From NCBI GenBank assembly GCA_045545255.1, contig JAZQAQ010000102.1, positions 1 through 42,225 of the forward strand: 42,225 nucleotides of DNA, in the 5' to 3' direction. The stretch is from Eubacteriales bacterium. Lineage in GTDB: Bacteria; Bacillota; Clostridia; Oscillospirales; QAKW01. How positions within the stretch are numbered: the first letter of the stretch is position 1; each line of letters opens with the position of its first letter. The notes under the pieces are model-generated. The model saw only the letters and a list, made by a program, of their open reading frames with translations. It was not told where the DNA came from and searched no databases. Of this stretch, positions 2,722 through 23,575 are shown piece by piece. Made by a program: the position numbers and the translations under genes.

Positions 2722-3609
2722 TTATTTCCCCAAAAGCTTCTTTTCAACATATTCAAAGCCCAGTCGCTGAATGGTATCGCCGAACCGCTCGCCTGCGATG
2801 CCTTCGTCGCGGAAGAGACAGATGGCCCGCTCCACGATGTTCAGCACCTCCTCTGCATCGGTGATAACGGGGGAGAGGGGAATGCCGCGGGCAACCTTTT
2901 TTCCCCAGCGTCCGCCGATATAGATACGATAGCCGTTGGTGGGATGATGGACTGCACCGAAGGGGCATTTTTCAAAGCAACGCCCGCAACGGTTGCAGAT
3001 CTCGGGGTCAATGGTGATCTTATCGGTGAGGGTCGCCGCCTTCATCGGACACCCCTCTGCTACCTGACATTTTTTGCAGCTCTTGCAGTTTTCTGCGTTG
3101 ATCTTCGGTGCTTTTTGACCGATGATGCCGATATCGTTGATATCCGGCTTGACGCAGTTATTGGGGCAGCCGCCTACGGCGATCTTAAATTTATGGGGCA
3201 GCTTCACATCGCGATACCCTTTATAAAAACGCTCGTGAATCGCTTGGGAGAGGGCAAAGGTATCAATGAGTCCGTAAGAGCAGGTGGTACCCTTGCAGGA
3301 TACGACCGGTCGCACCTTGGGACCTGTCCCGCCGATCTCCAGCCCGTATTCTGCCAGAAAGGCGATCAACGGTTCAATATTGGCAAAGGGGATGCGCTGC
3401 AGCTCCACCGACATTCTGCTGGTCATTGCCAACTCTCCGTTGCCGAATCGCTCTGCCGCCTCCGCCAATGCCTTGGCTTCTCTTGCGGTGATTTTGCCGT
3501 TGCGGGTGATGACCCGCGCATTAAAGCAGTCCTCGGTCAGCTTATCTCTTAAAAAGCCCAAGCCTTTGACGCGGGCAATATCTTCCGGTGAAACGGTACA
3601 TTTGATCAT
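2722..3609 (-). CDS. Small sulfite/nitrite-reductase-like protein with siroheme-[4Fe-4S] and 2x[4Fe-4S] ferredoxin motifs (AsrC/DsrA-like)
   Basis: Contains SCKGTTCSYG and GGCPNNCVKP (Cys-X5-Cys ... Cys-X3-Cys) plus CKSCKKCQVAEGCP and CNRCGRCFEKCP. Start moved to the ATG at 3609, which has GGAGG 8 nt upstream; the ORF track start is 3654. Confidence 0.75.
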   Translation of the reverse strand: MIKCTVSPEDIARVKGLGFLRDKLTEDCFNARVITRNGKITAREAKALAEAAERFGNGELAMTSRMSVELQRIPFANIEPLIAFLAEYGLEIGGTGPKVRPVVSCKGTTCSYGLIDTFALSQAIHERFYKGYRDVKLPHKFKIAVGGCPNNCVKPDINDIGIIGQKAPKINAENCKSCKKCQVAEGCPMKAATLTDKITIDPEICNRCGRCFEKCPFGAVHHPTNGYRIYIGGRWGKKVARGIPLSPVITDAEEVLNIVERAICLFRDEGIAGERFGDTIQRLGFEYVEKKLLGK

Positions 3610-13407: not shown

Positions 13408-13415
13408 GGTGAATC

Positions 13416-13455
13416 AAAACAAAAAGAGTTGCCTTGAGGCAACTCTTTTTGTTTT
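13416..13455 (+). terminator. Strong intrinsic terminator after the GGGtGRT gene
   Basis: 18-bp arms AAAACAAAAAGAGTTGCC / GGCAACTCTTTTTGTTTT around a TTGA loop. Confidence 0.85.
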
Positions 13456-13497
13456 AAAAGTGTTTATAAGTACAAGTTTTGAATTAATAGAGGGAAG

Positions 13498-14082
13498 ATG
13501 TTATCATATTATTTAAGTTTTATTGACGACGAAAACAGTCGCATTAAATTTGAAGAATTATACTATGCATATCGAAAACAAATGATATTGGTTGCAAAAA
13601 AGTATATTCAGAATGATGATGATGCTCAAGATGTGGTTCATGATGTCTTAGTTGATATTGCTGCAAAACATATGTCGTTGATTCAATCTATTAATGATTC
13701 CAGAGATGTAAGAAATTACTTATTAACAGCTACAAAAAATAGAGCGATAAATGAAATAAAAAGAAGAGATAAGTTTGTATCGTTTGAAAAAGTCGAGAGT
13801 GTTGATCTGTCTAAATATTCAACTTTAAATGATTCTGATTTTATTGATTTGTTATGTGAACGATTAGAATATAAATGTGTTTTAGAGGCAATGCTTAAGT
13901 TAGATGAACCGTATAGAGATGTTTTGTATTATCATTTTGTTGTGGAATTAAAAATAGCGGATATTGCAAAACTTCTTGACCGAAAGGTTCAAACGGTAAA
14001 AAAACAACTAGTTAGAGGAAAAAAACAATTGTTAAGCATATTAGCTGTGGAAGGAATTTTTGATAATTATGCCAATGAATAA
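13498..14082 (+). CDS. ECF-type sigma-70 family RNA polymerase sigma factor
   Basis: Region 2-like FEELYYAYRKQMILVAKKYIQNDDDAQDVVHDVLV and a region 4 HTH (LKIADIAKLLDRKVQTVKKQLVRGKKQL). 194 aa. Lies in the AT-rich island. Confidence 0.85.
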   Translation: MLSYYLSFIDDENSRIKFEELYYAYRKQMILVAKKYIQNDDDAQDVVHDVLVDIAAKHMSLIQSINDSRDVRNYLLTATKNRAINEIKRRDKFVSFEKVESVDLSKYSTLNDSDFIDLLCERLEYKCVLEAMLKLDEPYRDVLYYHFVVELKIADIAKLLDRKVQTVKKQLVRGKKQLLSILAVEGIFDNYANE

Positions 14083-14737
14083 AGCGGATTTATTTGATGC
14101 ATTTAGAAAAGCAGCCAGTGTCGAGTTCGAAGATATTCCGCCGGAAATATGTATTGATTATGCTTTTTCAGTAGATTTTGAATGTAAACTAAAAAAACTG
14201 ATAAAAAAAGAAAAACAAAGGTTGTGGCATTTTATTAATACGGGACCTAAACGGGTAATAATCATTATGATGGTATTTGCTTTATTATTTTCCACTGCAT
14301 GTAGCATCCCATCGATTAGAGAACCAATTTGTTCCTTCTTTGTTGAAGTATATAAGGATTTCGTTCATTATGTTTTTGAGGATGGCATTGATTCGATAAA
14401 AACTAAGTATAAACTCATTGCAGTTCCGAGTGGTTTTAGTAAAACGACGGTGTTCGAAACAGAATCCATCATTGTGACCACATATGAAAATTCTAATGGT
14501 GATTATTTAGAGTTTTCTCAAACAATAACCGATGATGTGGATCTTTATTTGGATTCAGAACGTGGAGAACTAACAGTAATTGACACAACAAATGTGAAAT
14601 ACTATCTTTATACACGAGAAAATTTGATACATATAGTTTTTGTGCGAGATTCATATGTTTTTAATTTGACATATCAAGGTGAACTTGAAAAGGAAGTTAT
14701 TTTCGATATTGCAACTTCAATGGCAGCGGTAGAATAA
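14069..14737 (+). CDS. Putative anti-sigma factor, single-pass membrane protein with a DUF4367-like C-terminal domain
   Basis: Overlaps the sigma gene end. Short cytoplasmic N-terminus, TM segment (VIIIMMVFALLFSTA) and an extracytoplasmic domain with TYENSNGDYLEFSQT-type motif. Alternative starts at 14060 and 14075. Confidence 0.7.
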   Translation: MPMNKADLFDAFRKAASVEFEDIPPEICIDYAFSVDFECKLKKLIKKEKQRLWHFINTGPKRVIIIMMVFALLFSTACSIPSIREPICSFFVEVYKDFVHYVFEDGIDSIKTKYKLIAVPSGFSKTTVFETESIIVTTYENSNGDYLEFSQTITDDVDLYLDSERGELTVIDTTNVKYYLYTRENLIHIVFVRDSYVFNLTYQGELEKEVIFDIATSMAAVE

Positions 14738-14788
14738 CTAATGGAGACCTGATTTTGTAATCATGAAAAATCAGGTCTCCATTAGTTA
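14735..14788. terminator. Bidirectional terminator between convergent island genes
   Basis: Perfect 22-bp arms TAACTAATGGAGACCTGATTTT / AAAATCAGGTCTCCATTAGTTA that include both stop codons. Confidence 0.8.
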
Positions 14789-15238
14789 ATATGTTTTTTT
14801 AACTTCGCATGTTATTTTGTCCGCAGAACCGCCGTTTCCATAAATTTCATATACGGCAGTAATTCGGTATGTTCCGGTTGATGGTAGTTGAAAAGTATGA
14901 GAGCCAGTATATGAGAAGTTATATATTGTATCAACCCATTGATTATTAGGTTGATTAATATCAACGCTTTTCCAGAATAATCCTAAAAAGCGTTTCTCGA
15001 TTTTTGTTGTTATGATTGCTTTTGTTGTGGTGTTTTGGATTCCAACATAACGGTTTGATATTGTGATTATTCCGGAACTAGATACAGAAGCAGAAGTTTG
15101 TGCAGAAACTACATTGTTATATAAAGGAGCTACAGTGTGAGAGGAATCAATGGTAGCTGCGTGAGTATATGGCGTTGACATAATGATTAAGAATAAAATC
15201 AAAATGATCGATAAATTTCTTTTTAATATTTTATTCAT
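14786..15238 (-). CDS. Secreted hypothetical protein (150 aa)
   Basis: Signal peptide MNKILKRNLSIILILFLIIMSTPYTHA. Ser/Thr/Asn-rich and beta-rich mature part. No family recognised. Confidence 0.65.
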   Translation of the reverse strand: MNKILKRNLSIILILFLIIMSTPYTHAATIDSSHTVAPLYNNVVSAQTSASVSSSGIITISNRYVGIQNTTTKAIITTKIEKRFLGLFWKSVDINQPNNQWVDTIYNFSYTGSHTFQLPSTGTYRITAVYEIYGNGGSADKITCEVKKTY

Positions 15239-15277
15239 GTTATTCCTTTCATTAATACAAAATTTAAAAATTTTCTT

Positions 15278-16543
15278 TTAAGGAAGAACAGTTAATTCGC
15301 TTAAACAAAGGACTTCGTCTGACCACATGTGTAAAGTGGTTGAAGAACCCCAAATTGTATTTACATATTCGTAGCGAACTTGACCAAATGCTCCCATATA
15401 TGCATACGATTCATCTGTGACATTGCCCTCGTAAATATAATTAGTTCGTACGACTCCACCAGATGGATCATCTTCATAGCCGTCTATATCGGCGGAGTTC
15501 CATCCATAGAGTTTATAAATATTCCAAGAAACAATATTATCGTTATATATGCCCCCTATTTCTATAGTGCGGGTTGTTACTGTTGTACTCGACATAGTTA
15601 GAGGAACACCAAATGTGGTCCATCCATAATAAGGAATATAAGCTGGAAAAGTTAGATTTTGAACAACACTTCCGTTAGAAGGTGTTACCAATCCGGTAGA
15701 ATGTAAATACTTATCATTACTAATAATTTCAATCCGGTAGGTGTCTGGGTAGACGGTGAGAGATCCGGTGGTGAAACCATGTACATTTTTTAAATATGAT
15801 TTAAACTCACTACAATGGGAATTTACTTTTGCATAGACGGACATAGTATTCTGATTTTCAATCTCGTTAGCGTGGTAAATAGCGATTGTGGCAGCATCAT
15901 AACCAGAAGCATCGATTGTATCATAACCCTGTAAACGTATTGTTGCATCTACTGCCGTAGACATAACGGAATCATTTGATTGGGTTTCGTTTGATGGAAC
16001 TGACCCTTTTTTTGCTTGAACATTAAGTGCTGAGAGCTTGGAAATGTTAGAGGAAAACTCACCAAAGTAAATGATTTGAGGAGCTATTTTTCCAGCACAA
16101 CCGATGGTTAAAACAGAAAATGTTTCTGACTTTGAAATATAGTTGAAATCGAGTGTTAGTTGCTCAATTTTATTATTGTAGGATATCACGGCGTCTAAGA
16201 CACCGACATATCCGTTGGTATCATATGAATCTATTTTTCCAGTAGCAGGTACACTAATTTGTTTTTCTGGAAAAGTAATAGTAATTGATGCTTTTGTAGC
16301 ACAAGTTGATTTGAGATTCTGAATACTTACCGAGATTGATGAAACTGTATAATTTCTTTTTTCATTTTCGGTCGATGAAGAGTATTGTAGTGTGTTAGTT
16401 TGTGATTTATTTAATTGATTATTGGGGGATGAGGTGAATTGAATCATATTTGCTGTTTCCAAAGTTGTGAAAGAACAAAGATTTAGGTTTGATAATGTGA
16501 TGACTATTATCAATAGGGAAAGAATGAGGCGCTTTTTCTTCAT
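15278..16543 (-). CDS. Secreted hypothetical protein (about 421 aa)
   Basis: Start set at MKKKRLILSLLIIVITLS (signal peptide); the ORF track start is 16594. No family recognised. AT-rich codon usage like its neighbours. Confidence 0.65.
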   Translation of the reverse strand: MKKKRLILSLLIIVITLSNLNLCSFTTLETANMIQFTSSPNNQLNKSQTNTLQYSSSTENEKRNYTVSSISVSIQNLKSTCATKASITITFPEKQISVPATGKIDSYDTNGYVGVLDAVISYNNKIEQLTLDFNYISKSETFSVLTIGCAGKIAPQIIYFGEFSSNISKLSALNVQAKKGSVPSNETQSNDSVMSTAVDATIRLQGYDTIDASGYDAATIAIYHANEIENQNTMSVYAKVNSHCSEFKSYLKNVHGFTTGSLTVYPDTYRIEIISNDKYLHSTGLVTPSNGSVVQNLTFPAYIPYYGWTTFGVPLTMSSTTVTTRTIEIGGIYNDNIVSWNIYKLYGWNSADIDGYEDDPSGGVVRTNYIYEGNVTDESYAYMGAFGQVRYEYVNTIWGSSTTLHMWSDEVLCLSELTVLP

Positions 16544-16598
16544 GATTATTTTCCTTTCTTTTCTAATTAATAGTGATAATGTTTTTATAATCAACAGT

Positions 16599-17216
16599 TC
16601 ATATGTTATCCTCCTCCTTTTTTCTTAAAATGTAATATGAGGTGCATATTAGGGCGATCAAGGGATAGATATTGAAAAGAAAACTTTGTAAATAACTTGT
16701 TAATTTATATACAATGAATGGGACTGTCATTTGGGAAAGTATGCTTGAAAAGAATTCTAATGCAGTTGAGTAGGTGAATAGCAGAATGCCTATAATTATC
16801 CATATTGAGGAAAAATATTTCAATTTAATTATTTTGAAGTAATGGCCGGTAAAAAAAATAATTAAGAATAAGAGAACTAATTGGATGATAAATGAACTTT
16901 TTATCTCGCCAGATATCCAAAAAAGAGTGAGAGGTAATATGATACCACCAAAGATCAAGGCTATTTTATAAAATAAATAGAGCCAATCTTTGGTGTTGGC
17001 TTTATTGGTTTTGCAAAAGACCAAAAGAACAAGAAGAGAGGCACTTATACGAATGGCTAGTTGGAAAGAATCATAGATTATCACATTAAAATGGCTGGTT
17101 GTATTGCCAAAGAATAAATTGATAGTAAATGGACGAATAGTCCCAATAATTAATAAGTTGATTAATGAGTATATTGTTATGGCTTTCCAAAAAGATTTTA
17201 AGGAATTCATATTCAT
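16599..17216 (-). CDS. Polytopic membrane protein (205 aa), function unknown
   Basis: About 6 hydrophobic segments and no catalytic motif recognised (no AgrB-type or CPBP-type residues). First gene of the minus-strand island operon. Confidence 0.6.
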   Translation of the reverse strand: MNMNSLKSFWKAITIYSLINLLIIGTIRPFTINLFFGNTTSHFNVIIYDSFQLAIRISASLLVLLVFCKTNKANTKDWLYLFYKIALIFGGIILPLTLFWISGEIKSSFIIQLVLLFLIIFFTGHYFKIIKLKYFSSIWIIIGILLFTYSTALEFFSSILSQMTVPFIVYKLTSYLQSFLFNIYPLIALICTSYYILRKKEEDNI

Positions 17217-17340
17217 ATAATAAAGATCCTTGATTAAGAATTTGGTGTTTCTATTAATATAACAACGATAGAAACAAAAAGAGGACAGAAAAAAAGAATT
17301 TTTTTGTATGCGGTGGATTTTAAATAAAAAATCACCAATA

Positions 17341-17388
17341 AATCCTATGATTAGTATGACTGTGGCTGTATCTGAGGCTCTGAAGTAA
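17341..17388 (+). pseudogene. Diverged duplicate of the last ~15 codons of a GGGtGRT gene
   Basis: Translates to NPMISMTVAVSEALK*. The intact gene ends NPMVGMTVAVAVAVSEALK* (13348-13407). The copy is AT-richer and has no gene body upstream. Confidence 0.65.
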
Positions 17389-17442
17389 GGTTAGACCGCT
17401 GAAATCAGCGCAGACCGACTAAAATAAAGAAAGAACCTGCTT

Positions 17443-17797
17443 GTGGCACCCTCCGTAAGGAAGGTGCCACAGTTATATTCGCCTAACGGCGAGTGATATT
17501 GCTACGCAGTTATATTATGCTACGCATAGTGATATTGTCCTTCGGACAGTTAAATGGGCGAATATAATATCACTGAAACCGTTAGGTTTCAATATCACTT
17601 TTGCTGCAAGGCAAAAATATCACTGCAAACGATAGTTTGCAATATCACTTTACCTGCCGAGAAAAATACTCTTTATTTTCGGCGAGTATTTACCTTTCTC
17701 AAAGTACGTAACCCACTATGACACTTTCACAATACAAAAGTATCATTTCTCTTATAAAAGGAAAAAGGAGACAACTTCTTTACGAAGTGTCTCCTTT
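17443..17797 (+). mobile_element. ~355-bp non-coding structured element inserted into a terminator loop (copy A of a repeat family; MITE/PATE-like)
   Basis: Its flanks, 17429-17442 and 17798-17814, reconstitute the intact terminator seen at 22172-22201. Subterminal hairpins at 17442-17471 and 17767-17794. No ORF with an RBS. Homologous in layout and tail sequence to 23112-23451. Confidence 0.55.
17566..17649 (+). repeat. Four AATATCACT motifs at an exact 25-nt period, separated by three different 16-nt hairpins
   Basis: Motif starts at 17566, 17591, 17616 and 17641. Spacers are GAAACC-GTTA-GGTTTC, TTTGC-TGCAAG-GCAAA and GCAAAC-GATA-GTTTGC. Inverted motif copies (AGTGATATT / AGTTATATT) lie at 17471, 17492, 17508 and 17528. 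Confidence 0.85.
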
Positions 17798-17820
17798 CGG
17801 CAGGTTCTTTTTTTGTGTCT

Positions 17821-17878
17821 TCGCGTCGGGATGACCGCTCGGCGTATCATATACGCCTTCGGGACCGTCCCGACGCGA
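17821..17878. repeat. Nested palindrome
   Basis: Outer 11-bp arms TCGCGTCGGGA / TCCCGACGCGA enclose an inner hairpin GGCGTAT-CAT-ATACGCC. GACCGCTC (17833-17840) is also complementary to GAGCGGTC (17893-17900). Confidence 0.6.
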
Positions 17879-17972
17879 TCTGCATCTGATTTGAGCGGTC
17901 TGCGGGAGGAATATCGGAGAAAACGAAAATCTCATCCCATTTGAAAGGTTTGTAAAAACCAAATGAATTAGA

Positions 17973-17999
17973 GACCCCTGAAAAGGGGTCCCTTTTTAT
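17973..17999. terminator. Terminator hairpin at the end of the AraC-family gene
   Basis: GACCCCT-GAAA-AGGGGTC lies next to the stop at 17996-17998. There is a T-run on the plus side and T-rich sequence on the minus side. Confidence 0.55.
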
Positions 18000-18820
18000 T
18001 TCTCATGCTGTTTTCGGTATTCAGTGGGGGTGGTGTGGTAGGTGGCTTTAAAGACCTTATTAAAATAGGTGACGTTTTTAAAGCCTACTTCCGTCGAAAT
18101 TTCGATGATGCTGTGGGAGGTAGAAACAAGCAGTTTTTCTGCCTGTTTCAGTCGTTCCGAGCGGATATAGTCGTTTAGGGAAACACCGGTTTCTTTTTTG
18201 AAAAGTCGGCAAAGGTAGCGAGGATTATAATAAAAGGTCTCTACAAGGTTTTTGGCATACAACTCAAAGTCAAGATTTTCGCGGATATAGTTTTTGATAT
18301 TACGGATCAGGGGTTTTTCGTTCGTCTGAGCATCAGGAAAGTTTTGAAGCAAAAAAAGGATGTAGTTTTCGATGGTTTGGGAGACGCTTCGGCACAGTTC
18401 GGGGGAGAAATCCTGCTCCAAGCTATCTAAAGGGAGCGGCTGTCCCTTTGCCTTTTTTCTCATTTTGCGAAGGGAGTCTTCTCCGTCCGAAATATTGCCG
18501 ATAAAGATGATGGCGGCAACATCGTCCTCTATCAGAACGGGGTGGGTGTACTCATAGATGCCGTTGACACAATGTGCGCCGAAGGCTGTTTTGGTTTTCA
18601 TGGTCTTTTTGATAACGAAGTTTCGGCACCGCAAACATCTTGAGTAGGATTGACTGCTGAGTCTTTTGAAACTGTCACAGATAGGGGTGGCATGAATTTG
18701 GTGATCGGACGGCAGCTTGCAGGCGGTGTTGCCGTAATCCTTGAAAAACAAAACCACAATGTGAAGGTTTGTTTTGTATTCGATCTGTTGGATGAGTTGA
18801 TATAAAAGAGAAACGGACAT
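17996..18820 (-). CDS. AraC-family transcriptional regulator with a PocR-like N-terminal sensor domain
   Basis: C-terminal double HTH (YAKNLVETFYYNPRYLCRLFKKETGVSLNDYIRSERLKQAEKLL...FKNVTYFNKVFKATYHTTPTEYR). Cys-rich N-terminal half. Start set at the ATG at 18820 after GGAG; a TTG lies at 18832. Confidence 0.85.
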   Translation of the reverse strand: MSVSLLYQLIQQIEYKTNLHIVVLFFKDYGNTACKLPSDHQIHATPICDSFKRLSSQSYSRCLRCRNFVIKKTMKTKTAFGAHCVNGIYEYTHPVLIEDDVAAIIFIGNISDGEDSLRKMRKKAKGQPLPLDSLEQDFSPELCRSVSQTIENYILFLLQNFPDAQTNEKPLIRNIKNYIRENLDFELYAKNLVETFYYNPRYLCRLFKKETGVSLNDYIRSERLKQAEKLLVSTSHSIIEISTEVGFKNVTYFNKVFKATYHTTPTEYRKQHEK

Positions 18821-18948
18821 CTTGAACTCCAAAGCACATATTTTTGAAAATTATAGTATAAATGTTTCATTTTTTCAAGTTTTAAAACGATTATTATAAG
18901 AATTTGATTGGGTATGGTGTTACAATAAATAAAAAAGGAGGCGTTTTT

Positions 18949-20175
18949 ATGAATAAGTATGATTTGATCGTTGTCGGTGGCGGAATTTCCGGCATCTGCG
19001 CCGCGGTAGCGGCGGCACGGCAGGAACTTTCGGTGTTACTGCTTGAGGAGTCCGGTGTTCTCGGCGGTGCCATGTCCAACAGCTTGGTGTATCCCTTTAT
19101 GCGTTTTCGGACGCGTGGAGAGGGAGCGAAGCTTCTTTCGGCGGGGTTATTTTCTGAAATTCAAAAACGCCATGCGACTTACGGAGACTCCTCTTGGGAG
19201 ACCTATAAGCTGATCTTCGATGAAATGATGGAGGAGGCGGGGGTGGCCGTCCTGCTCCATGCCACGGTGATGGAGGCCGTCTGTGAGGGGCGGCAGGTCG
19301 TCGGAGTTAAGGCGGCGACCAAAAGCGGTGTTCTGGACTTCTATGCCGATTTCTTTATCGATGCCAGCGGCGACGGTGCCTTGATCGCTCTGACGGGGTG
19401 CGATTATCAGCTGGGCAGAGAAAGCGACGGCTACTGCCAGCCCATGACCACCTGCTTTCGGTTGAGCAACGTGGATATTCCGCAGTTTTTGAAGGAAAAG
19501 GAGACCCTGCAACAGAAGTATAAGGAATACAGAGAAAAGGGTCTCATTCAAAATCCACGTGAAAATATCTTGACTTTTAACGGGATCGGGGACGGCATTT
19601 TGCATTTCAACACCACCCGTATCGTGATGGAGGATCCCACCGATGCCTTTGGGATCAGCCGTGCGGAGATGGGCGCCCGTAAGCAGATCAAGGAGATGTT
19701 TGATTTCATGCGGGAGAATGCAGAGAGCTGTAAAGACGCAAACCTCGTTTACGTGGCAAATCACATCGGTATCCGTGAGAGCCGCAAGCTGAAGGGGGTT
19801 CATATTCTGACCGAGGAAGAGCTGGTTGCCTGCAAGGATTTTGAGGATACCATCGCCCTCGGCTGTTATGATATCGATATCCATAACCCCACCGGAACGG
19901 GAACTTATATCTATAAATTCCAAGGGGATGATTATTACAAGATTCCCTATCGCTGTTTGTTGCCCAAGGAATACGATAATATGCTGGTCGCGGGACGATG
20001 TCTTTCCGCCGATCACGCCGCTCATTCTTCGGTGCGTATCATTCCCATCTGCGCCAATATGGGCGAGGCGGCGGGTATTGCGGCGGCAGTCTGCAAAAAG
20101 GACGGCACCAATGCCCATACCGTAGACGTCCAAAAGGTACGCAATACCTTGCTTGAGAAGGGAGCAATATTATGA
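18949..20175 (+). CDS. FAD-dependent oxidoreductase, paralog of 6688-8046
   Basis: YDLIVVGGGISGICAA dinucleotide motif. Shares IGIRESRK, DIDIH and LVAGRC..(S/A)..H......VR..P blocks with the first copy. AGGAGG RBS before the ATG at 18949. Confidence 0.85.
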   Translation: MNKYDLIVVGGGISGICAAVAAARQELSVLLLEESGVLGGAMSNSLVYPFMRFRTRGEGAKLLSAGLFSEIQKRHATYGDSSWETYKLIFDEMMEEAGVAVLLHATVMEAVCEGRQVVGVKAATKSGVLDFYADFFIDASGDGALIALTGCDYQLGRESDGYCQPMTTCFRLSNVDIPQFLKEKETLQQKYKEYREKGLIQNPRENILTFNGIGDGILHFNTTRIVMEDPTDAFGISRAEMGARKQIKEMFDFMRENAESCKDANLVYVANHIGIRESRKLKGVHILTEEELVACKDFEDTIALGCYDIDIHNPTGTGTYIYKFQGDDYYKIPYRCLLPKEYDNMLVAGRCLSADHAAHSSVRIIPICANMGEAAGIAAAVCKKDGTNAHTVDVQKVRNTLLEKGAIL

Positions 20176-22169
20176 CGGGGATCAACGAAGGGGAGGAAGC
20201 GGAGTTCCTGGTTCCGGTCGGCCTTACGGGAAACTGGCAGACACCGGAGGATGTTGCCGCTACTGTTACACAGCAGCACGAACGGTACGGGTTGAAACGG
20301 TTTGCGCTGGCCGCGCCCGGCTTGGCATGGAGATACAAAGGATATCCTGACGTAACGGTCTATGAGCAGTTTGCCGAAATCTTTTGTCGGGTACGTGAAT
20401 TGTTAAAGGGTCGGGATCTGGCTCTCGGTTGGTGGAGCTCTGTCAATTTGAAGTCCGGCAGACACCCGGATATTCAGCCCGTTGTAAGGGGGGACGGAGA
20501 AGAGCATCCCTTTGCCAACTGCCCCTCCGATGACGAATTTAAGGAACGTCACGCGAAAAATATAGCTACGTTCTGTCGGATCGCAAGGCCGGATTTTATC
20601 ATTATTGAGGATGATTACTGTATCAGTGCGGCGGCAGGCAAATACGGCTGTTTTTGCAAAAACCATCTGGCTGAATTTGAAAAACGTGTGGGAAGACGTT
20701 ATGAGCGGGAAGAATTGGTGCGCATTTTCGGAAAAAAGGAGCAGGACTCCATTGAGCTTCTGAAACGGTACAAGGAAATGCTCAAGGACACTATGGTGGA
20801 TTTTTCTGTTCAGATCAGACGGGAATTGGACAAGCAGACACCGGAAATCCCGATCTGTCTTGCCCAAGCAGGAACCATTGACAACGACGGAAATGCAACA
20901 GAGGCGGTTTGTCGGGCACTGGCAGGCAAGAATCACCGTCCTCTTTGTCGACTTTACGGTGCCTATTACAATGGCGGCGAGATCAAAAATGTTCCCGAAC
21001 TGCTGTACCACGCCGTTTACTGTAAGCAGCATATCAGTGAGGATTTTGGGCTTTATCATGAATCGGATACCTATCCGCATACGCGCTTTTTCACCTCGGC
21101 AAGAATGATGAAAACTTATTTGGGAATTACCTATTCTCAGGGGCTTATCGGTTCTGTTTTTCAGACCCAGCAGCATTTGGACGATCCCGGTGAGGAAACT
21201 GCCTACGGTGAAATGCTGAAAAGCGAGCGTGCTCGCCTGACGGAGCTGATCAAAACGGTATCGGGCTGTACGCCCATGGGGGTGGAGATTCCTTATGATC
21301 CGTTTTATAATTTTATGGAGGAAAGCAGAAATCCGCTTTGGGTAAGACCGGTGACCGCCTTTGGTATCCCCTTTGTCACCACCCCTGCCAAAACGGCATT
21401 TCTGGATGAGGTGAGCGCAAAGTATCTCGGCGATGATGAACTGAAACGCTATCTGTCCGGCAATCTCTTTTTAGACGGGGACGCGGCCTATCACTTGACA
21501 CAACGGGGATACGGCAGATATCTGGGCGTTTCGGTCGGGGAGAACGCCGTTACGGACGAGATGAAGTACGATTTTGCGGCAAAGGAAGTGATTCGGCCGC
21601 CCTTTGACCAATATTCCGTGGGTAAAAATATGCCTGCGGCACATACCTATGCAAAGGGGAAAAATGGCATCCCCAGAAGTATGACCCACCTCGAAGAAAA
21701 GACAGAGATCATCAGCGAGGTTCTTTCCTGCGAAGGAATCCCGTTTACCGTCGGGATGACACGCTTTGAAAACGAGCTGGGCGGTCGGGTCGTGGTGATG
21801 GGGATGACCTTGAGAGGGAACGGCTCGCAATCGCTGTTCAATTACCGCCGTATGAGGCTGTTTGATCAACTGCTTTTATGGGGAAATGCGGAAATTCCCT
21901 TTGTGAAAAACGAGCCGTATCTCCATCTGATCGCCAATAAGGGCGGAAGCGATAAGGATTTTTCCTATCAGATGACGGTGATCAATCTGGCGGAGGATAC
22001 GGTGAGCGGTGCAGAAATATATCTGCCGGAATGTATGCGGAATAAAGAAATTCTGTATCTTACCGCTGACGGATGCTGGGAAAAGGCGGATATTGTCGAA
22101 ACCAAGGATGGGATGATGATCAAGCATCCGTTGGAAATCTGTGAACCGTTGTATCTAACATTCAGATAG
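20172..22169 (+). CDS. Uncharacterised 665-aa cytoplasmic protein (possibly glycoside-hydrolase-like TIM barrel; unverified)
   Basis: ATGA start/stop overlap with the FAD gene. No signal peptide. Not similar to the 660-aa partner of the other FAD gene. Confidence 0.7.
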   Translation: MTGINEGEEAEFLVPVGLTGNWQTPEDVAATVTQQHERYGLKRFALAAPGLAWRYKGYPDVTVYEQFAEIFCRVRELLKGRDLALGWWSSVNLKSGRHPDIQPVVRGDGEEHPFANCPSDDEFKERHAKNIATFCRIARPDFIIIEDDYCISAAAGKYGCFCKNHLAEFEKRVGRRYEREELVRIFGKKEQDSIELLKRYKEMLKDTMVDFSVQIRRELDKQTPEIPICLAQAGTIDNDGNATEAVCRALAGKNHRPLCRLYGAYYNGGEIKNVPELLYHAVYCKQHISEDFGLYHESDTYPHTRFFTSARMMKTYLGITYSQGLIGSVFQTQQHLDDPGEETAYGEMLKSERARLTELIKTVSGCTPMGVEIPYDPFYNFMEESRNPLWVRPVTAFGIPFVTTPAKTAFLDEVSAKYLGDDELKRYLSGNLFLDGDAAYHLTQRGYGRYLGVSVGENAVTDEMKYDFAAKEVIRPPFDQYSVGKNMPAAHTYAKGKNGIPRSMTHLEEKTEIISEVLSCEGIPFTVGMTRFENELGGRVVVMGMTLRGNGSQSLFNYRRMRLFDQLLLWGNAEIPFVKNEPYLHLIANKGGSDKDFSYQMTVINLAEDTVSGAEIYLPECMRNKEILYLTADGCWEKADIVETKDGMMIKHPLEICEPLYLTFR

Positions 22170-22174
22170 AGGAA

Positions 22175-22201
22175 AGAACCTGCTTCGGCAGGTTCTTTTT
22201 T
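22175..22201 (+). terminator. Intrinsic terminator (the intact version of the sequence split at 17.44/17.80 kb)
   Basis: AGAACCTGC-TTCG-GCAGGTTCT followed by TTTTT. Confidence 0.85.
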
Positions 22202-22238
22202 ATATCCCATCATACAATCACCGCTACGGCATCAGCAT

Positions 22239-22658
22239 CCATACATTGATATCCATCAATGTATGGATGCTGTCCGAACGTCAATAATTAGAGGAGCATT
22301 GATGCACATCAATGCCTTGCGATGACTATACATTGATGAGCACCGATGCTTGGCGTTGACATATACATTGATCAGTATCAATGCCTTGAGATAACTATAC
22401 ATTGATGAGAATCAATGTCTTGATATAATTATATATTGATGAGTATCAATGCGTTGCGATAGTTATACATTGATGAGTATCGATGCTTGGTGTTGACATA
22501 TGCATTGATGAGTATCAATGTTTGGCGTTAGCATATACATTGATCAACATTGATGCTTGGTGTTGACAAATACATTGATGAGCATCGATGCCCTGCGATA
22601 GCTATACATTGATGGAGATCGATGTTGGGTTTGGCATATGTATTGATGAGAAGCGAGG
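22239..22658. repeat. Array of 12 CATTGAT-N4-ATCAATG palindromes; ten form a head-to-tail run with a 34-35 bp period
   Basis: Core starts at 22244, 22297, 22331, 22366, 22400, 22434, 22468, 22503, 22538, 22573, 22607 and 22641 (the last is degenerate). There are two spacer variants. The first copy, 22239-22266, is a perfect 12+4+12 palindrome. Confidence 0.9.
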
Positions 22659-22715
22659 TTCTGATGGGGTATTTTAGAGGGGAGGAGTATGTAGATTTAA
22701 AGCATCGTGCAGATA

Positions 22716-22744
22716 TTGACAAATTCACAAAAAATGTTATCATT
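22716..22744 (+). promoter_or_regulatory. Extended -10 promoter of the ArsR-family gene
   Basis: TTGACA (22716-22721), a 16-nt spacer, then TG-T-TATCAT (22735-22743). Confidence 0.65.
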
Positions 22745-22770
22745 TATACATTGATGATCATCAATGTATA
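22745..22770. promoter_or_regulatory. Perfect 26-bp palindromic operator TATACATTGAT-GATC-ATCAATGTATA
   Basis: Lies between the -10 element and the GGAGGG RBS of the wHTH regulator gene. Has the same core as the upstream array. Confidence 0.7.
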
Positions 22771-22788
22771 GGAGGGACGAAGATAACT

Positions 22789-23058
22789 ATGAGCGATCAG
22801 GAGTTGATCCAATGTTTGAAAGTAATGGCGGATCCGATACGCTATGCTATTTTAGATATGCTTCGAGAGCGACCGGCGCACTCTTATGAGCTTTTAGCCG
22901 GATTATCCATTACACAACCGACACTTTCTCATCATATGAAGGTATTGCGAGAATCCGGGTTGGTAACCGTTATACAGGAACCGCGCTGGAAAACCTATGC
23001 ATTAAATGAAATAAAACTCGGCACACTCATCCGACAATTAGAAGAATTCTTGAAGTGA
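22789..23058 (+). CDS. ArsR/SmtB-family winged-helix transcriptional regulator (89 aa), no obvious metal-sensing site
   Basis: ADPIRYAILDML...ELLAGLSITQPTLSHHMKVLRESGLV is the ArsR HTH signature. There is only one Cys (C9), no ELCVCDL motif and no C-terminal His/Asp/Glu cluster. Confidence 0.85.
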   Translation: MSDQELIQCLKVMADPIRYAILDMLRERPAHSYELLAGLSITQPTLSHHMKVLRESGLVTVIQEPRWKTYALNEIKLGTLIRQLEEFLK

Positions 23059-23111
23059 GACGGAGTCAATATTTCTCTTTTTCATTTGAATATTTTGCGG
23101 GATAAAGAGAG

Positions 23112-23451
23112 TCTTTAGCATTGTGTCCCGAAGGACACAATGCAGCGATATAAATCCCTTGCAGGATTTGCGATATGGCAAAGCTGCGATATGTCCTTTT
23201 TGCGCGATATGTGCCTTACGGCACGGGATAGGGGATTTATATCATATCGCATTTACCGATCGGTAAATATATCGTTTTTTCGTCAGAAAAAATATCGCAT
23301 TGCGAAGCAATATATCGCCAAAATAATTACTACCTGAAAAAGAGCTTTGTTTTCTCTTCTTCGGGTAGTTTTGTTTTACACTATTACAAGCAGGAATTTT
23401 GTATGCCAAAATTTCACGTTCTTTATAAAAAACTGACCTTAAGTAATCTAC
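23112..23451 (+). repeat. Copy B1 (~340 bp) of the structured non-coding element family
   Basis: Left hairpin CATTGTGTCC-CGAA-GGACACAATG (23119-23142). GCGATAT motifs at 23145, 23170, 23186 and 23204. Inverted ATATCG(C) motifs at 23244, 23269, 23292 and 23312, each separated by a different hairpin. The tail resembles 17650-17766. Boundaries are approximate. Confidence 0.7.
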
Positions 23452-23573
23452 TCTTTAGCATTGTGTCCCCAAGGACACAATGCAGCGATATAAATCCCTT
23501 GCAGGATTTGCAATATAGCAAAGCTGCGATATGTGCCTTGCGGCACGGGAAAGTGGATTTATATCATATCGCA
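23452..23573 (+). repeat. Copy B2, a truncated tandem copy of the same element
   Basis: Near-identical to B1 over the left hairpin and the motif array, apart from an 18-nt deletion. Homology stops at ATATCGCA (23573). Confidence 0.75.
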
Positions 23574-23575
23574 CA

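Follow-up and report, generated by a model that had tools for sequence, protein, structure and literature searches.

A non-coding element at the tip of an intrinsic terminator carries Gut-1 repeats and belongs to a gut Clostridia family that inserts into unrelated terminators

Introduction

IS1630 of Mycoplasma fermentans targets inverted repeats such as rho-independent terminators, IS30 carries inverted repeats of ~26 bp, and elements of the IS3 family generate target duplications of 3–4 bp. The intervening sequences of 23S rRNA lie in hairpin loops and are bounded by inverted repeats, and some of them encode a ~120-aa protein of the PF05635 family. MIC231 of B. cereus is a mobile insertion cassette. 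The insertion point of IS30 within its near-palindromic hot spots is the central 2 bp, and the inserted copy is flanked by 2-bp direct repeats (PMC9333248). The IS3-family elements IS1397 and ISKpn1 insert specifically in extragenic palindromes (REP), a specificity that resides in the transposase (PMC1525189). Among smaller elements, the P. gingivalis MITE BrickBuilt contains an internal array of 23-nt repeats (PMC4596501), and none of the prokaryotic MITE families listed in a 2024 review is specific for terminator loops (PMC10969869). Finally, the Gut-1 RNA motif (Rfam RF01706) was described by Weinberg et al. in 2010 (PMC2864571).

Here, a 42,225-nt contig of an Eubacteriales bacterium (GCA_045545255.1, JAZQAQ010000102.1; hereafter the window) is analyzed. 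A first-pass annotation of this sequence had proposed that a mobile, non-coding element landed in the loop of an intrinsic terminator by single-strand transposition.

Results

Element A interrupts the loop of an intrinsic terminator

Element A is a 353-bp non-coding sequence (17443-17795) located at the tip of a transcription-terminator hairpin that is common to the convergent GGGtGRT-family and AraC-family genes (Table 1). The interrupted terminator corresponds to GAAAGAACCTGC-TTCG-GCAGGTTCTTTTTT, and the break lies within its loop: GAAAGAACCTGC plus TT ends at 17442 and the right half starts at 17798, in agreement with the positions given by the first-pass annotation. The arrangement is not due to chance: the edges of this single insert match the terminator halves over a 14-mer and a 16-mer. 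In the minimum-free-energy fold of the whole element, the left half of the terminator pairs with 17800-17814, and this outer stem closes the structure (z = −12.3 versus shuffles); both strands fold equally well. No credible ORF is present inside element A, the longest (55 aa) running through the repeat array.

Both ends of the element are hairpins. The left-end hairpin (17443-17470) consists of 8 bp, one mismatch and 3 bp closed by a GTAA loop, with a folding energy of −21.5 kcal/mol, and the right-end hairpin (17767-17794) has a comparable energy of −20.4 kcal/mol. These hairpins had been noted before, along with a supposed lack of terminal inverted repeats. When the left end is aligned with the reverse complement of the right end, however, 21 of 31 aligned bases are the same (68%), a weak inverted repeat whose score was equaled by only 1 of 2000 shuffles. 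The left-end hairpin appears terminator-like for transcription coming in from the left, as does the right-end hairpin, on the minus strand, for the transcript of the AraC-family gene. In addition, TT flanks the element on both sides. The annotation had allowed at most a TT target duplication at this site, and the TTCG loop of the empty site is compatible with one; for element A itself the TT is ambiguous, being indistinguishable from an element that simply ends in TT.

Table 1 Features of element A and related sequences in the window.
Feature	Position	Strand	Remarks
Left half of split terminator	17426..17440	+	A-rich tract and stem GAAAGAACCTGC
TT, left copy of putative 2-bp target duplication	17441..17442	.	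First two bases of the original TTCG loop
Left-end hairpin (left terminal inverted repeat)	17443..17470	+	Followed by AGTTATATT
Forward Gut-1 array	17470..17560	+	RF01706, 57.7 bits (gathering score, 50)
Reverse Gut-1 array	17562..17650	-	RF01706, 39.9 bits (below threshold), E 2.8e-6; repeat family D9
Tail region	17651..17766	+	Promoter-like ATGACA-17-TATCAT at 17718-17746
Right-end hairpin (right terminal inverted repeat)	17767..17795	+	On the - strand, followed by TTTTTCCTTTTAT
TT, right copy of putative 2-bp target duplication	17796..17797	.	L132 homology ends at 17797
Right half of split terminator	17798..17814	+	CG, stem GCAGGTTC and T7
Paralogous intact terminator	22172..22201	+	3' of a 665-aa gene; GAAAGAACCTGC-TTCG-GCAGGTTC and T-run
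Copy B, related element of another subfamily	23112..23451	+	Hairpin GCATTGTGTCC..GGACACAATGC; arrays on GCGATAT/ATATCGC
Copy C, truncated tandem copy of the left portion of B	23452..23575	+	Gut-1, 32.6 bits

The uninterrupted site is found in related genomes

The orthologous site was reached in three related genomes through protein homologues of the flanking genes, with synteny on both sides. It is an uninterrupted terminator in L131, where stem and loop are identical, and likewise in L132 and L129/L130. The closest relative (L132) aligns with the window at 89% identity over 22171..17797, and the alignment breaks off precisely at the boundary of element A. In metagenomes, no exact match to the predicted uninterrupted site turned up. 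The empty sites in the relatives show that a bidirectional intrinsic terminator was already in place when element A inserted at its apex, and they bear out the proposal of a mobile, non-coding insertion. The annotation had also treated the intact hairpin at 22172-22201 as the "before" state of a before-and-after pair. The coordinates of this hairpin are correct and such a pair does exist, but its empty member lies in the related genomes: at the position of the 22.17-kb hairpin, the relatives have different terminators, and the L132 homology ends at 22171. This hairpin is therefore a paralogous copy, not the ancestral empty site.

Element A holds an inverted pair of Gut-1 arrays

The interior of element A contains two inverted copies of Rfam Gut-1 (RF01706), linked by the AT-rich center GGCGAATATAATATCAC. 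The forward array, which lies above the curated gathering score for Gut-1 membership (50 bits), is built from five AGT(G/T)A(T/A)AT(T) repeats, and small hairpins occupy three of its four spacers, the second spacer (TGCTACGC) forming none. On the plus strand, the reverse array consists of four AATATCACT repeats split by 6-bp tetraloop hairpins with unrelated stems. Hairpin stems vary from unit to unit, and the conserved part is only the 7–9-nt linker. Across 337 distinct spacers, Watson–Crick pairs amount to 93–94%, and the hairpin spacers are under selection for pairing in single-stranded form; the wobble-pair bias favors the strand opposite to the Rfam orientation of Gut-1, so that any Gut-1 transcript would be expected from the strand reading AUAUCAC. 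A role of the heptamers as phased sites on double-stranded DNA is unlikely, as their spacing of ~22–28 bp is variable and does not place them on one helical face. A predicted promoter-like sequence, TTGAAA-17-TGnTATTAT, reads leftward on the minus strand (17592-17564), and a σ70 promoter reading rightward from the array center is unlikely because its spacer, judged by eye, is too long. The tail of element A has homologues in at least 15 other loci, with 74–92% identity to L063, L094, L067, L105, L068, L053 and others.

Two sequences at 23.1 and 23.45 kb had been named as related copies. Copies B and C do share the architecture of element A, but they carry GCGATAT as the heptamer and only sub-threshold Gut-1 matches (24.5 and 20.7 bits in copy B), and no split terminator is detectable around either of them. 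They represent a partial tandem duplication (repeat families D4 and D8). Copy B has homologues in L023, L069 and L035. Copy C adjoins the promoter of a YgjV-family gene, and the host sequence restarts at attgacctt, as in L131.

The family inserts repeatedly into unrelated terminators

More than 119 related loci are present in gut Clostridia genomes, so the element is indeed multi-copy, as the annotation had supposed, and Gut-1 scores above the gathering threshold in many of them. Among the hairpin-ended copies with a readable flank, the left flank is the left half of a different terminator (A-run and stem) in 36 of 39. Unique complementary halves, A-run/stem on one side and stem/T-run on the other, flank 21 of 86 copies; permutation controls (n = 20) gave a mean of 2.95 and a maximum of 5 such matches. 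The target stems have no sequence in common. These results show that the family inserts repeatedly into unrelated terminators.

The family elements terminate on both sides in a hairpin of ~26–30 bp, one end being an inverted copy of the other. This inversion holds in every subfamily, and repeats of 13–20 bp are clearer in L056, L095, L101 and L110; examples of the inverted repeats of the family are GGCGTGATACTCTTAACGGAGAATTT and GAGGCACCCTCCGTAAGG, each followed at the far end by its inverse. A 2-bp duplication located at the center of the target palindrome flanks most copies. In the largest subfamily, when fixed boundaries are applied, the duplication is perfect in 8 of 11 copies and the other three match at only one of the two bases. 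From one subfamily to another, the element boundaries carry an uncertainty of ~1 nt, and some of them were picked after inspection. Judged by eye, no more than 5 of 10 copies agreed with a 3-bp model, which was rejected in favor of the 2-bp model. The dinucleotide varies by site among TT, AT, TA, TC, AA and CA: for example, TA is duplicated in L019, L056 and L095, TC in L067 and L068, and AT in L081.

Longer relatives with the same ends contain an internal promoter and passenger genes, never a transposase. The commonest passenger is the 23S-rRNA-intervening-sequence protein, PF05635 (E = 1.8e-28), of which at least 7990 close homologues occur in gut metagenomes. In L048 (1241 bp), a PF05635 gene and a lipoprotein-like ORF lie between the family ends; other passenger forms with these ends are L019 (782 bp), L042 (849 bp) and L148 (~1.14 kb). 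A metagenome scan additionally recovered L135-L137, which share the left repeat and are preceded by a terminator-like flank but lack Gut-1 arrays, and Gut-1 arrays are also found without the inverted repeats. The Gut-1 array pair is thus a separable passenger module. Our best guess is that the arrays act as a multi-site protein-binding scaffold, made of RNA or single-stranded DNA, that is tied to the adjacent passenger promoter or PF05635 gene.

A second context is observed for 23 copies, whose arrays lie directly 3' of an intact terminator-like hairpin and have no defined right end. In 13 of these 23, a predicted tRNA gene is located just upstream and ends 0–3 nt before the hairpin. The main insertion model leaves this context unexplained. 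A duplication of the IS1630 type, which would place a second terminator-type hairpin 3' of the tRNA-adjacent copies, yielded only chance matches. One unannotated fecal "phage" contig carries the tRNA-adjacent form.

Searches recovered no cognate transposase gene

As the annotation had stated, the window holds no recognizable transposase gene: none was found among 19 of the larger ORFs, mainly those near element A and in the central part. When every ORF lying up to 3.5 kb from ~120 copies was clustered, no transposase emerged, and no Y1 or RAYT-like protein cluster, the kind of gene that the annotation had suggested looking for, recurs within this distance. An all-against-all DNA comparison of the related loci (~0.8 Mb) for IS-like repeats, and a scan for extra copies of the inverted repeats, likewise produced no transposase. 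In viral contigs, searches with inverted-repeat patterns returned 0 matches and 10 chance matches in coding sequence, again with no transposase. BLAST searches of plasmids and phages gave no plasmid match and no transposase, and a metagenome scan for the left inverted repeat lacking its palindromic partner gave no autonomous element. In all, these searches of the window, related loci, viral contigs and plasmids recovered no autonomous partner sharing the inverted repeats. Since no transposase was found, the DDE/IS30-like assignment made below draws only on end anatomy and footprint.

Discussion

Element A is probably a non-autonomous transposon with terminal inverted repeats, roughly the size of a MITE, that belongs to a large gut Clostridia family and is moved by a DDE-type transposase acting in trans. 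As expected for a MITE, it has terminal inverted repeats and a short duplication (ambiguous for element A alone), and it is small, non-coding and multi-copy, with empty sites in related genomes. To mobilize the element, a DDE-type transposase from elsewhere would recognize the inverted repeats and would make cuts staggered by 2 bp at the dyad center of long A-tract/stem/loop/stem/T-tract palindromes. The two end hairpins, each with an inward T-rich tract, may then stand in for the termination that is lost through insertion, in which case terminator tips would be a harmless landing site.

The family has much in common with E. coli IS30, namely inverted repeats of ~26 bp, a 2-bp duplication and insertion at a dyad center, and it shows the combination of a 2–3-bp duplication with palindrome-center insertion that characterizes the IS30 family. 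On the other hand, the inverted-repeat sequences are unrelated to those of IS30, the ends themselves are hairpins, the targets are alike in shape (A-tract/stem/loop/stem/T-tract) instead of sharing a consensus, and no IS30-type or other transposase was found. IS1630 duplicates its whole target repeat, whereas these elements split it. Insertion inside extragenic palindromes is shared with IS1397 and ISKpn1, but those elements are autonomous, and within a genome their target is a single conserved REP sequence rather than arbitrary terminators. In being short, non-coding, intergenic and multi-copy, with inverted repeats and small duplications, the elements resemble bacterial MITEs and mobile insertion cassettes. 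The cassette resemblance extends to the forms that have passenger genes and no transposase: family members, though not element A, enclose passengers between the same inverted repeats without encoding a transposase. What sets them apart from known MITEs is that their internal repeats correspond to a curated "RNA" of Rfam whose hairpins covary, and that their ends appear to serve as replacement terminators as well.

The absence of a transposase across the whole family, passenger forms included, would also suit a cassette that relies for its movement on a tyrosine or serine recombinase of the host or a prophage. The 28–32-bp palindromic ends would then be core sites, like those of Xer-dependent pdif modules or integron attC hairpins, the terminators would mimic the core site, and the 2 bp would be the crossover dinucleotide. 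The ends resemble two inverted 12–13-bp arms about a 4–6-bp center, the targets are palindromes with matching geometry, and the shared flank is exactly 2 bp. However, site-specific recombinases need specific arms and the target stems offer no common sequence. The dinucleotide also differs within one subfamily (TT or AT), which a conservative crossover would not tolerate without mismatch, and no recombinase gene is associated with the elements. We consider movement by such a recombinase unlikely.

Another proposal takes the Gut-1 arrays and the four-helix-bundle protein PF05635 as the core of a cassette system that would invade hairpin tips without a conventional transposase, via structure-guided host nucleic-acid enzymes, and holds that the same kind of element made the 23S rRNA intervening sequences. 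The family elements do resemble those intervening sequences in lying at hairpin tips and in having PF05635 as the commonest passenger; they differ in occupying terminators and not rRNA, and element A has no ORF. This proposal is, in our estimation, distinctly improbable.

The single-strand mechanism favored by the first-pass annotation was that of a PATE derived from IS200/IS605 or of a REP/RAYT-like element, in which a Y1 HUH transposase acts on subterminal hairpins and inserts the element 3' of a short fixed flank, CTT. Strong hairpins at both ends, internal spacers selected for pairing in one strand, a hairpin target that could extrude on the lagging strand and the lack of a transposase encoded in cis are all consistent with it. 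Across the family, however, none of its three diagnostic premises survives. Instead of being direct repeats, the end hairpins are inverted copies, and in element A the same-strand loops read GTAA at the left end and TTTAC at the right; the dinucleotides next to the elements are duplicated and change from site to site; and the left flank is no fixed CTT but whichever terminator stem or loop was hit. The lack of a recurrent Y1 or RAYT-like cluster near the copies also counts against it. A PATE would have ends in direct orientation without inverted repeats, and a fixed 4–5-nt 5' target without duplication, neither of which is seen; a REPIN, which would have a single conserved palindrome and 5' tetranucleotide per genome and an associated RAYT gene, is contradicted by stems that differ per unit around a conserved 7–9-nt linker, and by the missing RAYT-like cluster. 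A single-strand origin is therefore very unlikely.

Scarcely credible is the reading that nothing was inserted and that the whole 390-nt region is one structured RNA gene, an extended Gut-1 RNA whose closing helix doubles as a terminator, the differing terminator halves being covariation of that helix. The closing outer stem and the classification of Gut-1 as an sRNA in Rfam (PMC2864571) accord with such a gene. The bare terminators at the syntenic site in three relatives refute it as the sole explanation; moreover, homology stops at the element edge, the flanks show 2-bp duplications and inverted repeats, the same ends enclose protein-coding passengers of 0.8–1.2 kb, and neither strand folds better than the other. 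Part of the element may be transcribed as RNA. Of the remaining candidates, a class C group II intron, which would contain ribozyme domains I–VI, is rejected because element A is only 353 bp, has no group II match in Rfam and sits inside a loop instead of just 3' of a stem, and IS110/bridge-RNA systems, Tn7- or Mu-like end repeats, replication-origin iterons and integrase arm sites were dropped because no associated protein was found and the arrays are separable from the mobile backbone.

Returning to the transposon reading, Gut-1, which has been an orphan family in Rfam since 2010, is a module of repeats frequently carried by mobile elements in human and ruminant gut Clostridia. In contrast to its classification in Rfam, it is found here within a mobile element, as an inverted pair, in Clostridia assemblies from animal as well as human guts, and is not a free-standing sRNA gene limited to human gut samples. 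The elements point to an undescribed mobile-element family that identifies intrinsic terminators by their shape and inserts at the apex, and what appear to be built-in replacement terminators would make insertion nearly neutral. Should the cognate transposase be identified, it would be a candidate for directing insertions to terminator tips, natural "safe harbour" sites, with genes left undisturbed. The longer family members behave as mobile expression cassettes, combining a promoter and a conserved leader with passenger genes that vary, and given the abundance of their PF05635 homologues in gut metagenomes, they may matter for gene flow in the microbiome. The PF05635 link also provides a testable approach to the old question of how rRNA hairpin loops acquired their intervening sequences. 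If the improbable cassette system without a transposase were real, it would constitute a categorically new mobility mechanism and give a function to two orphans, PF05635 and Gut-1.

Insertion site and empty sites

The first-pass annotation had described an intact terminator hairpin at 22.17 kb and the same stem split in two at 17.4 kb, and this description was confirmed at both positions (see table). To search for empty sites, the closest homologues (~80% protein identity) of the downstream AraC-family regulator were retrieved with their flanking DNA, and uninterrupted terminators were present at the syntenic position in related genomes. In relative L131, AAAAAAGAACCTGC-CGAA-GCAGGTTCTTTTTT lies right after the stop codon and equals the 22.17-kb sequence, including the loop, on the window plus strand. 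The orthologous site of L132 reads AAAAAAAGAACCTGC-CGAG-GCAGGTTTTTTTTT, and that of L129 and L130 reads AAAAAAGAACCTGTC-TTGC-GACAGGTTCTTTCC, followed by the 3′ end of a convergent GGGtGRT-family gene; this 3′-end sequence is also kept in the window, on the left side of the split terminator. The alignment of L132 with the window (89% identity over 4.4 kb) stops at 17797, the final base ahead of the right half-terminator. Together, the intact terminators and this alignment end indicate that the terminator is older than the element, which almost certainly inserted into its loop, as judged from these comparisons. The earlier reading of the two window hairpins as a before-and-after pair thus reached the right conclusion, a mobile insertion, by reasoning that was partly wrong: other terminators occupy the 22172 position in relatives, so the hairpin there is a paralogue.

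Several neighbouring segments also vary. The region at 22170–23575, which holds the terminator copy, a 34-bp repeat array, an ArsR-family gene and the related elements B and C, is missing in L131, where the terminator of a 665-aa gene directly precedes a YgjV-family promoter; L132 homology stops at 22171. The array fills the gap between the 22.17-kb terminator and the ArsR-family gene and resembles a set of iterons or an operator array. In L129 the GGGtGRT-family gene adjoins the AraC-family gene; in the window a ~4-kb island comes between them, with genes for an ECF sigma factor and a DUF4367 protein plus three ORFs without a Pfam match, and other genes take its place in L131 and L132. A fragment resembling the GGGtGRT-gene 3′ end is repeated near the island's right border, as if the island had integrated into the end of that gene. 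Finally, a 181-bp segment separating the terminator from the stop codon of the AraC-family gene is found in L132 and is absent from L129 and L131. This segment opens with its own terminator-like hairpin, has a long imperfect hairpin inside, and could represent a further small mobile element or repeat; ~38–50 nt of it recur in relatives (L132 6639–6688, L131 5589–5633, L130 2581–2617).

Features of the window at and around the split terminator
Feature	Position	Strand	Description
4-kb island	13408–17390		
GGGtGRT 3′-end-like fragment	about 17330–17390		
Split terminator, left	ends 17442		left arm + TT
Left-end hairpin	17443–17470		8 bp, one mismatch, 3 bp, loop GTAA; −21.5 kcal/mol
Gut-1 (RF01706), forward array	17470–17560	plus	57.7 bits (gathering score 50)
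Gut-1 second copy, reverse array	17562–17650	minus	39.9 bits
Right-end hairpin	17767–17794		−20.4 kcal/mol
Split terminator, right	starts 17798		CG + right arm + T7
181-bp segment	17815–17995		
AraC-family regulator gene	17996–18820	minus	downstream of element
Intact hairpin	22172–22201		GAAAGAACCTGC-TTCG-GCAGGTTC, then T6
~34-bp repeat array	22236–22773		at least 11 tandem copies; palindromic core ATACATTGATGAGnATCAATG
ArsR-family gene	22789–23058		

Anatomy of the element

From left to right, the element consists of the left hairpin, the forward array, an AT-rich centre (GGCGAATATAATATCAC), the reverse array, a tail of 116 nt that includes a promoter-like site, and the right hairpin; it has no credible ORF. 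Five AGT(G/T)A(T/A)AT(T) units make up the forward array; of its four spacers, three hold small hairpins and the second, TGCTACGC, forms none. The reverse array has four AATATCACT units, between which lie 6-bp tetraloop hairpins with unrelated stems. The fold of the whole region, closed in the prediction by the outer split stem, is far more stable than that of shuffles on both strands (z about −12). Copies B and C (23.1–23.6 kb) share this plan but have GCGATAT repeats and weak Gut-1 scores.

A family found at terminators

Further copies were sought, and the element proved to be multi-copy: one pattern search of species-representative genomes gave more than 119 loci among the matches listed, many at contig ends and every one in gut Clostridia (Oscillospiraceae, Acutalibacteraceae, Christensenellaceae, Butyrivibrio, Ruminococcus and others). 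Gut-1 scores above threshold in many of them. The 99 copies with sufficient left flank were classified as hairpin-ended, with a left-end hairpin like that of the window (43); single-array, without the forward array and in several cases within 5′ leaders of ordinary genes (28); terminator-type, with GAAAAAA-stem-TTTTTTC immediately ahead of the arrays (23); or unclear (5). In the hairpin-ended class, the left flank is an A-run and a GC-containing stem ending a few bases short of the element in 36 of 39 copies. Where the right side is readable, the complementary stem and a T-run follow the right end, and the stem sequence differs at every locus (for example L025, L029, L040, L045, L048, L067, L068, L071, L081, L084, L101, L105, L110 and L148). 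By a single fixed criterion, 21 of 86 copies split a terminator, compared with a mean of 2.95 and a maximum of 5 when left and right flanks were re-paired across loci in 20 permutations. The element very probably belongs to a multi-copy family that targets terminators.

On a 4.2-kb IMG/VR contig (L002, 1340–1570), a left half-terminator follows a fucosidase gene and leads into a copy whose tail is missing; this copy adjoins phage-like head genes (connector, HK97-type capsid, ClpP protease, portal). In L096 (5784–7523), a single split terminator surrounds a full window-subfamily copy, an MFS transporter gene and a second right-end hairpin, with the first internal hairpin flipped, an arrangement that suggests gene capture or inversion between element ends.

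In the terminator-type class, 13 of 23 copies have a tRNA gene predicted immediately upstream, ending 0–3 nt ahead of the hairpin. At tRNA-adjacent loci (L016, L017, L022, L027, L028, L037, L038, L041, L061, L072, L086, L098, L111, L134), the Gut-1 pair immediately follows the hairpin, which itself lies 0–3 nt past the end of a Tyr, Thr, Glu, Gln, Asn, Cys, Arg or Leu tRNA. The identical hairpin follows different tRNAs in different genomes, and at several loci (e.g. L017, L028, L037) the arrays are followed by unrelated ORFs preceded by AGGCGGTGA, a conserved promoter and ribosome-binding site. No right boundary could be defined for these copies. Other array contexts include a run of at least nine hairpin-plus-ATATCAC units ending in a terminator (L099, about 3000–3350, minus strand) and, in Butyrivibrio crossotus (L052, 1800–3530), duplicated arrays within a 1.7-kb segment bordered by perfect 24-bp inverted repeats.

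Passengers and Gut-1 arrays

Versions of 0.8–1.2 kb with the same ends as the short elements (L048, L019, L042, L148) enclose one or two ORFs and an internal terminator, with a σ70-like promoter right behind the arrays. L023, a 1430-bp split-terminator unit by score, carries a 262-aa membrane and zinc-ribbon ORF; a search for its inverted right end recovered none. The recurrent passenger ORF is a PF05635 "23S rRNA intervening-sequence protein" (E = 1.8e-28) with at least 7990 homologues, mostly on short contigs; the best 120 clusters (defined at 90% identity) are all 91–97% identical to the query. One PF05635-carrying element is fixed between the same gene pair in 10/10 sampled assemblies (nine from ENA metagenome samples, one an NCBI genome; the protein cluster is named Ruminococcus sp. 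at NCBI). A conserved structured motif, GGGTATGGGC..GCCC..GCATTTGTAATACAAATGCGAAACTGGCGATAA, lies just 5′ of passenger ORFs and in short-element tails (L042, L048, L148 at 2857–2910, L137, L036, L040, L023) and is a candidate cis-regulatory leader; at the gathering threshold, Rfam gave no match for it in L040, L042, L048, L036 or L023.

Three metagenome contigs have the same left repeat beside a terminator-like left flank without Gut-1 arrays, and arrays also occur without the inverted repeats. Thus, the arrays are a separable module rather than the backbone's transposition machinery. Across 337 distinct inter-heptamer spacers, 93–94% of outer positions form Watson–Crick pairs despite unrelated sequences, which indicates that single-strand pairing is under selection. 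On the ATATCAC-reading strand, G:T exceeds A:C in both arrays (34 vs 16 in the reverse, 14 vs 5 in the forward), weak evidence that the functional strand may be opposite to the Rfam orientation. Phased double-stranded-DNA sites are opposed by the variable heptamer spacing (22–28 nt). The source paper for Gut-1 says only that the motif occurs in human gut sequences (PMC2864571). Our tentative guess is that the arrays are an RNA or ssDNA scaffold with multiple protein-binding sites, perhaps linked to the neighbouring promoter or PF05635 gene.

Ends and mode of insertion

The element had been thought to lack terminal inverted repeats. In all subfamilies, however, the sequence of the left hairpin's outer arm recurs in inverted orientation at the right end (for example, GGCGTGATACTCTTAACGGAG vs reverse complement GGGTGATGTCCTTAGCGGAG). 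The match is 13/13 bases in L056, likewise clear in L095 and L094, and 21/31 in the window copy, a value equalled by 1 of 2000 shuffles. The first pass had also allowed at most a TT duplication; TT is compatible with the empty site of the window copy, and 2-bp duplications recur across the family and differ by site. When the repeat consensus was used to fix the boundaries, the dinucleotides on the two sides were identical in 8 of 11 largest-subfamily copies (TT in seven, AT in one), although TT is frequent in these loops and the element edges can be placed only to within about 1 nt. TA (L019, L056, L095) and TC occur in other subfamilies, and AT, AA and CA were read by eye in three further copies. 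In reconstructed target loops, the duplicated pair lies at or adjoins the dyad centre. The window copy fits this pattern (empty loop TTCG; filled site TT-[element]-TT-CG); taken alone, it would also be compatible with a blunt insertion of an element ending in TT.

Inverted repeats, a site-variable 2-bp duplication, insertion at the dyad centre and non-autonomous passenger copies point to a DDE-type transposase acting in trans, a mechanism that the repeats and duplication make somewhat the likelier. Such an enzyme would move the non-autonomous element into the dyad centre of terminator palindromes. IS30 similarly targets the two central base pairs of near-palindromic hot spots and generates 2-bp repeats there (PMC9333248), a likeness that extends to the duplication at the palindrome centre in this family; an IS30-family transposase specifically is nonetheless doubtful. 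IS1397 and ISKpn1 illustrate that the choice of extragenic palindromes as targets can lie with the transposase (PMC1525189). No transposase (Y1 or other) or integrase gene recurs within 3.5 kb of about 120 family copies. A cassette driven by a recombinase is less likely because the targets share no sequence. The single-strand IS200/IS605 and RAYT models favoured initially failed their defining tests.

T-rich tracts lie inward of both end hairpins (AGTTATATT on the left; TTTTTCCTTTTAT on the right, minus strand), and the chances are about even that these hairpins act as terminators. If so, the element would bring replacement terminators for both convergent host genes, and terminator tips would be tolerated as landing sites. 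A check of papers on terminators and MITEs, including a 2024 review of MITEs, and of the source paper for Gut-1 turned up no account of this family, of MITEs specific to terminator loops or of any mobile setting for Gut-1. The element is a MITE or mobile insertion cassette, unusual in its shape-based targeting, in ends that possibly insulate it from host transcription, and in its PF05635 and Gut-1 passengers.
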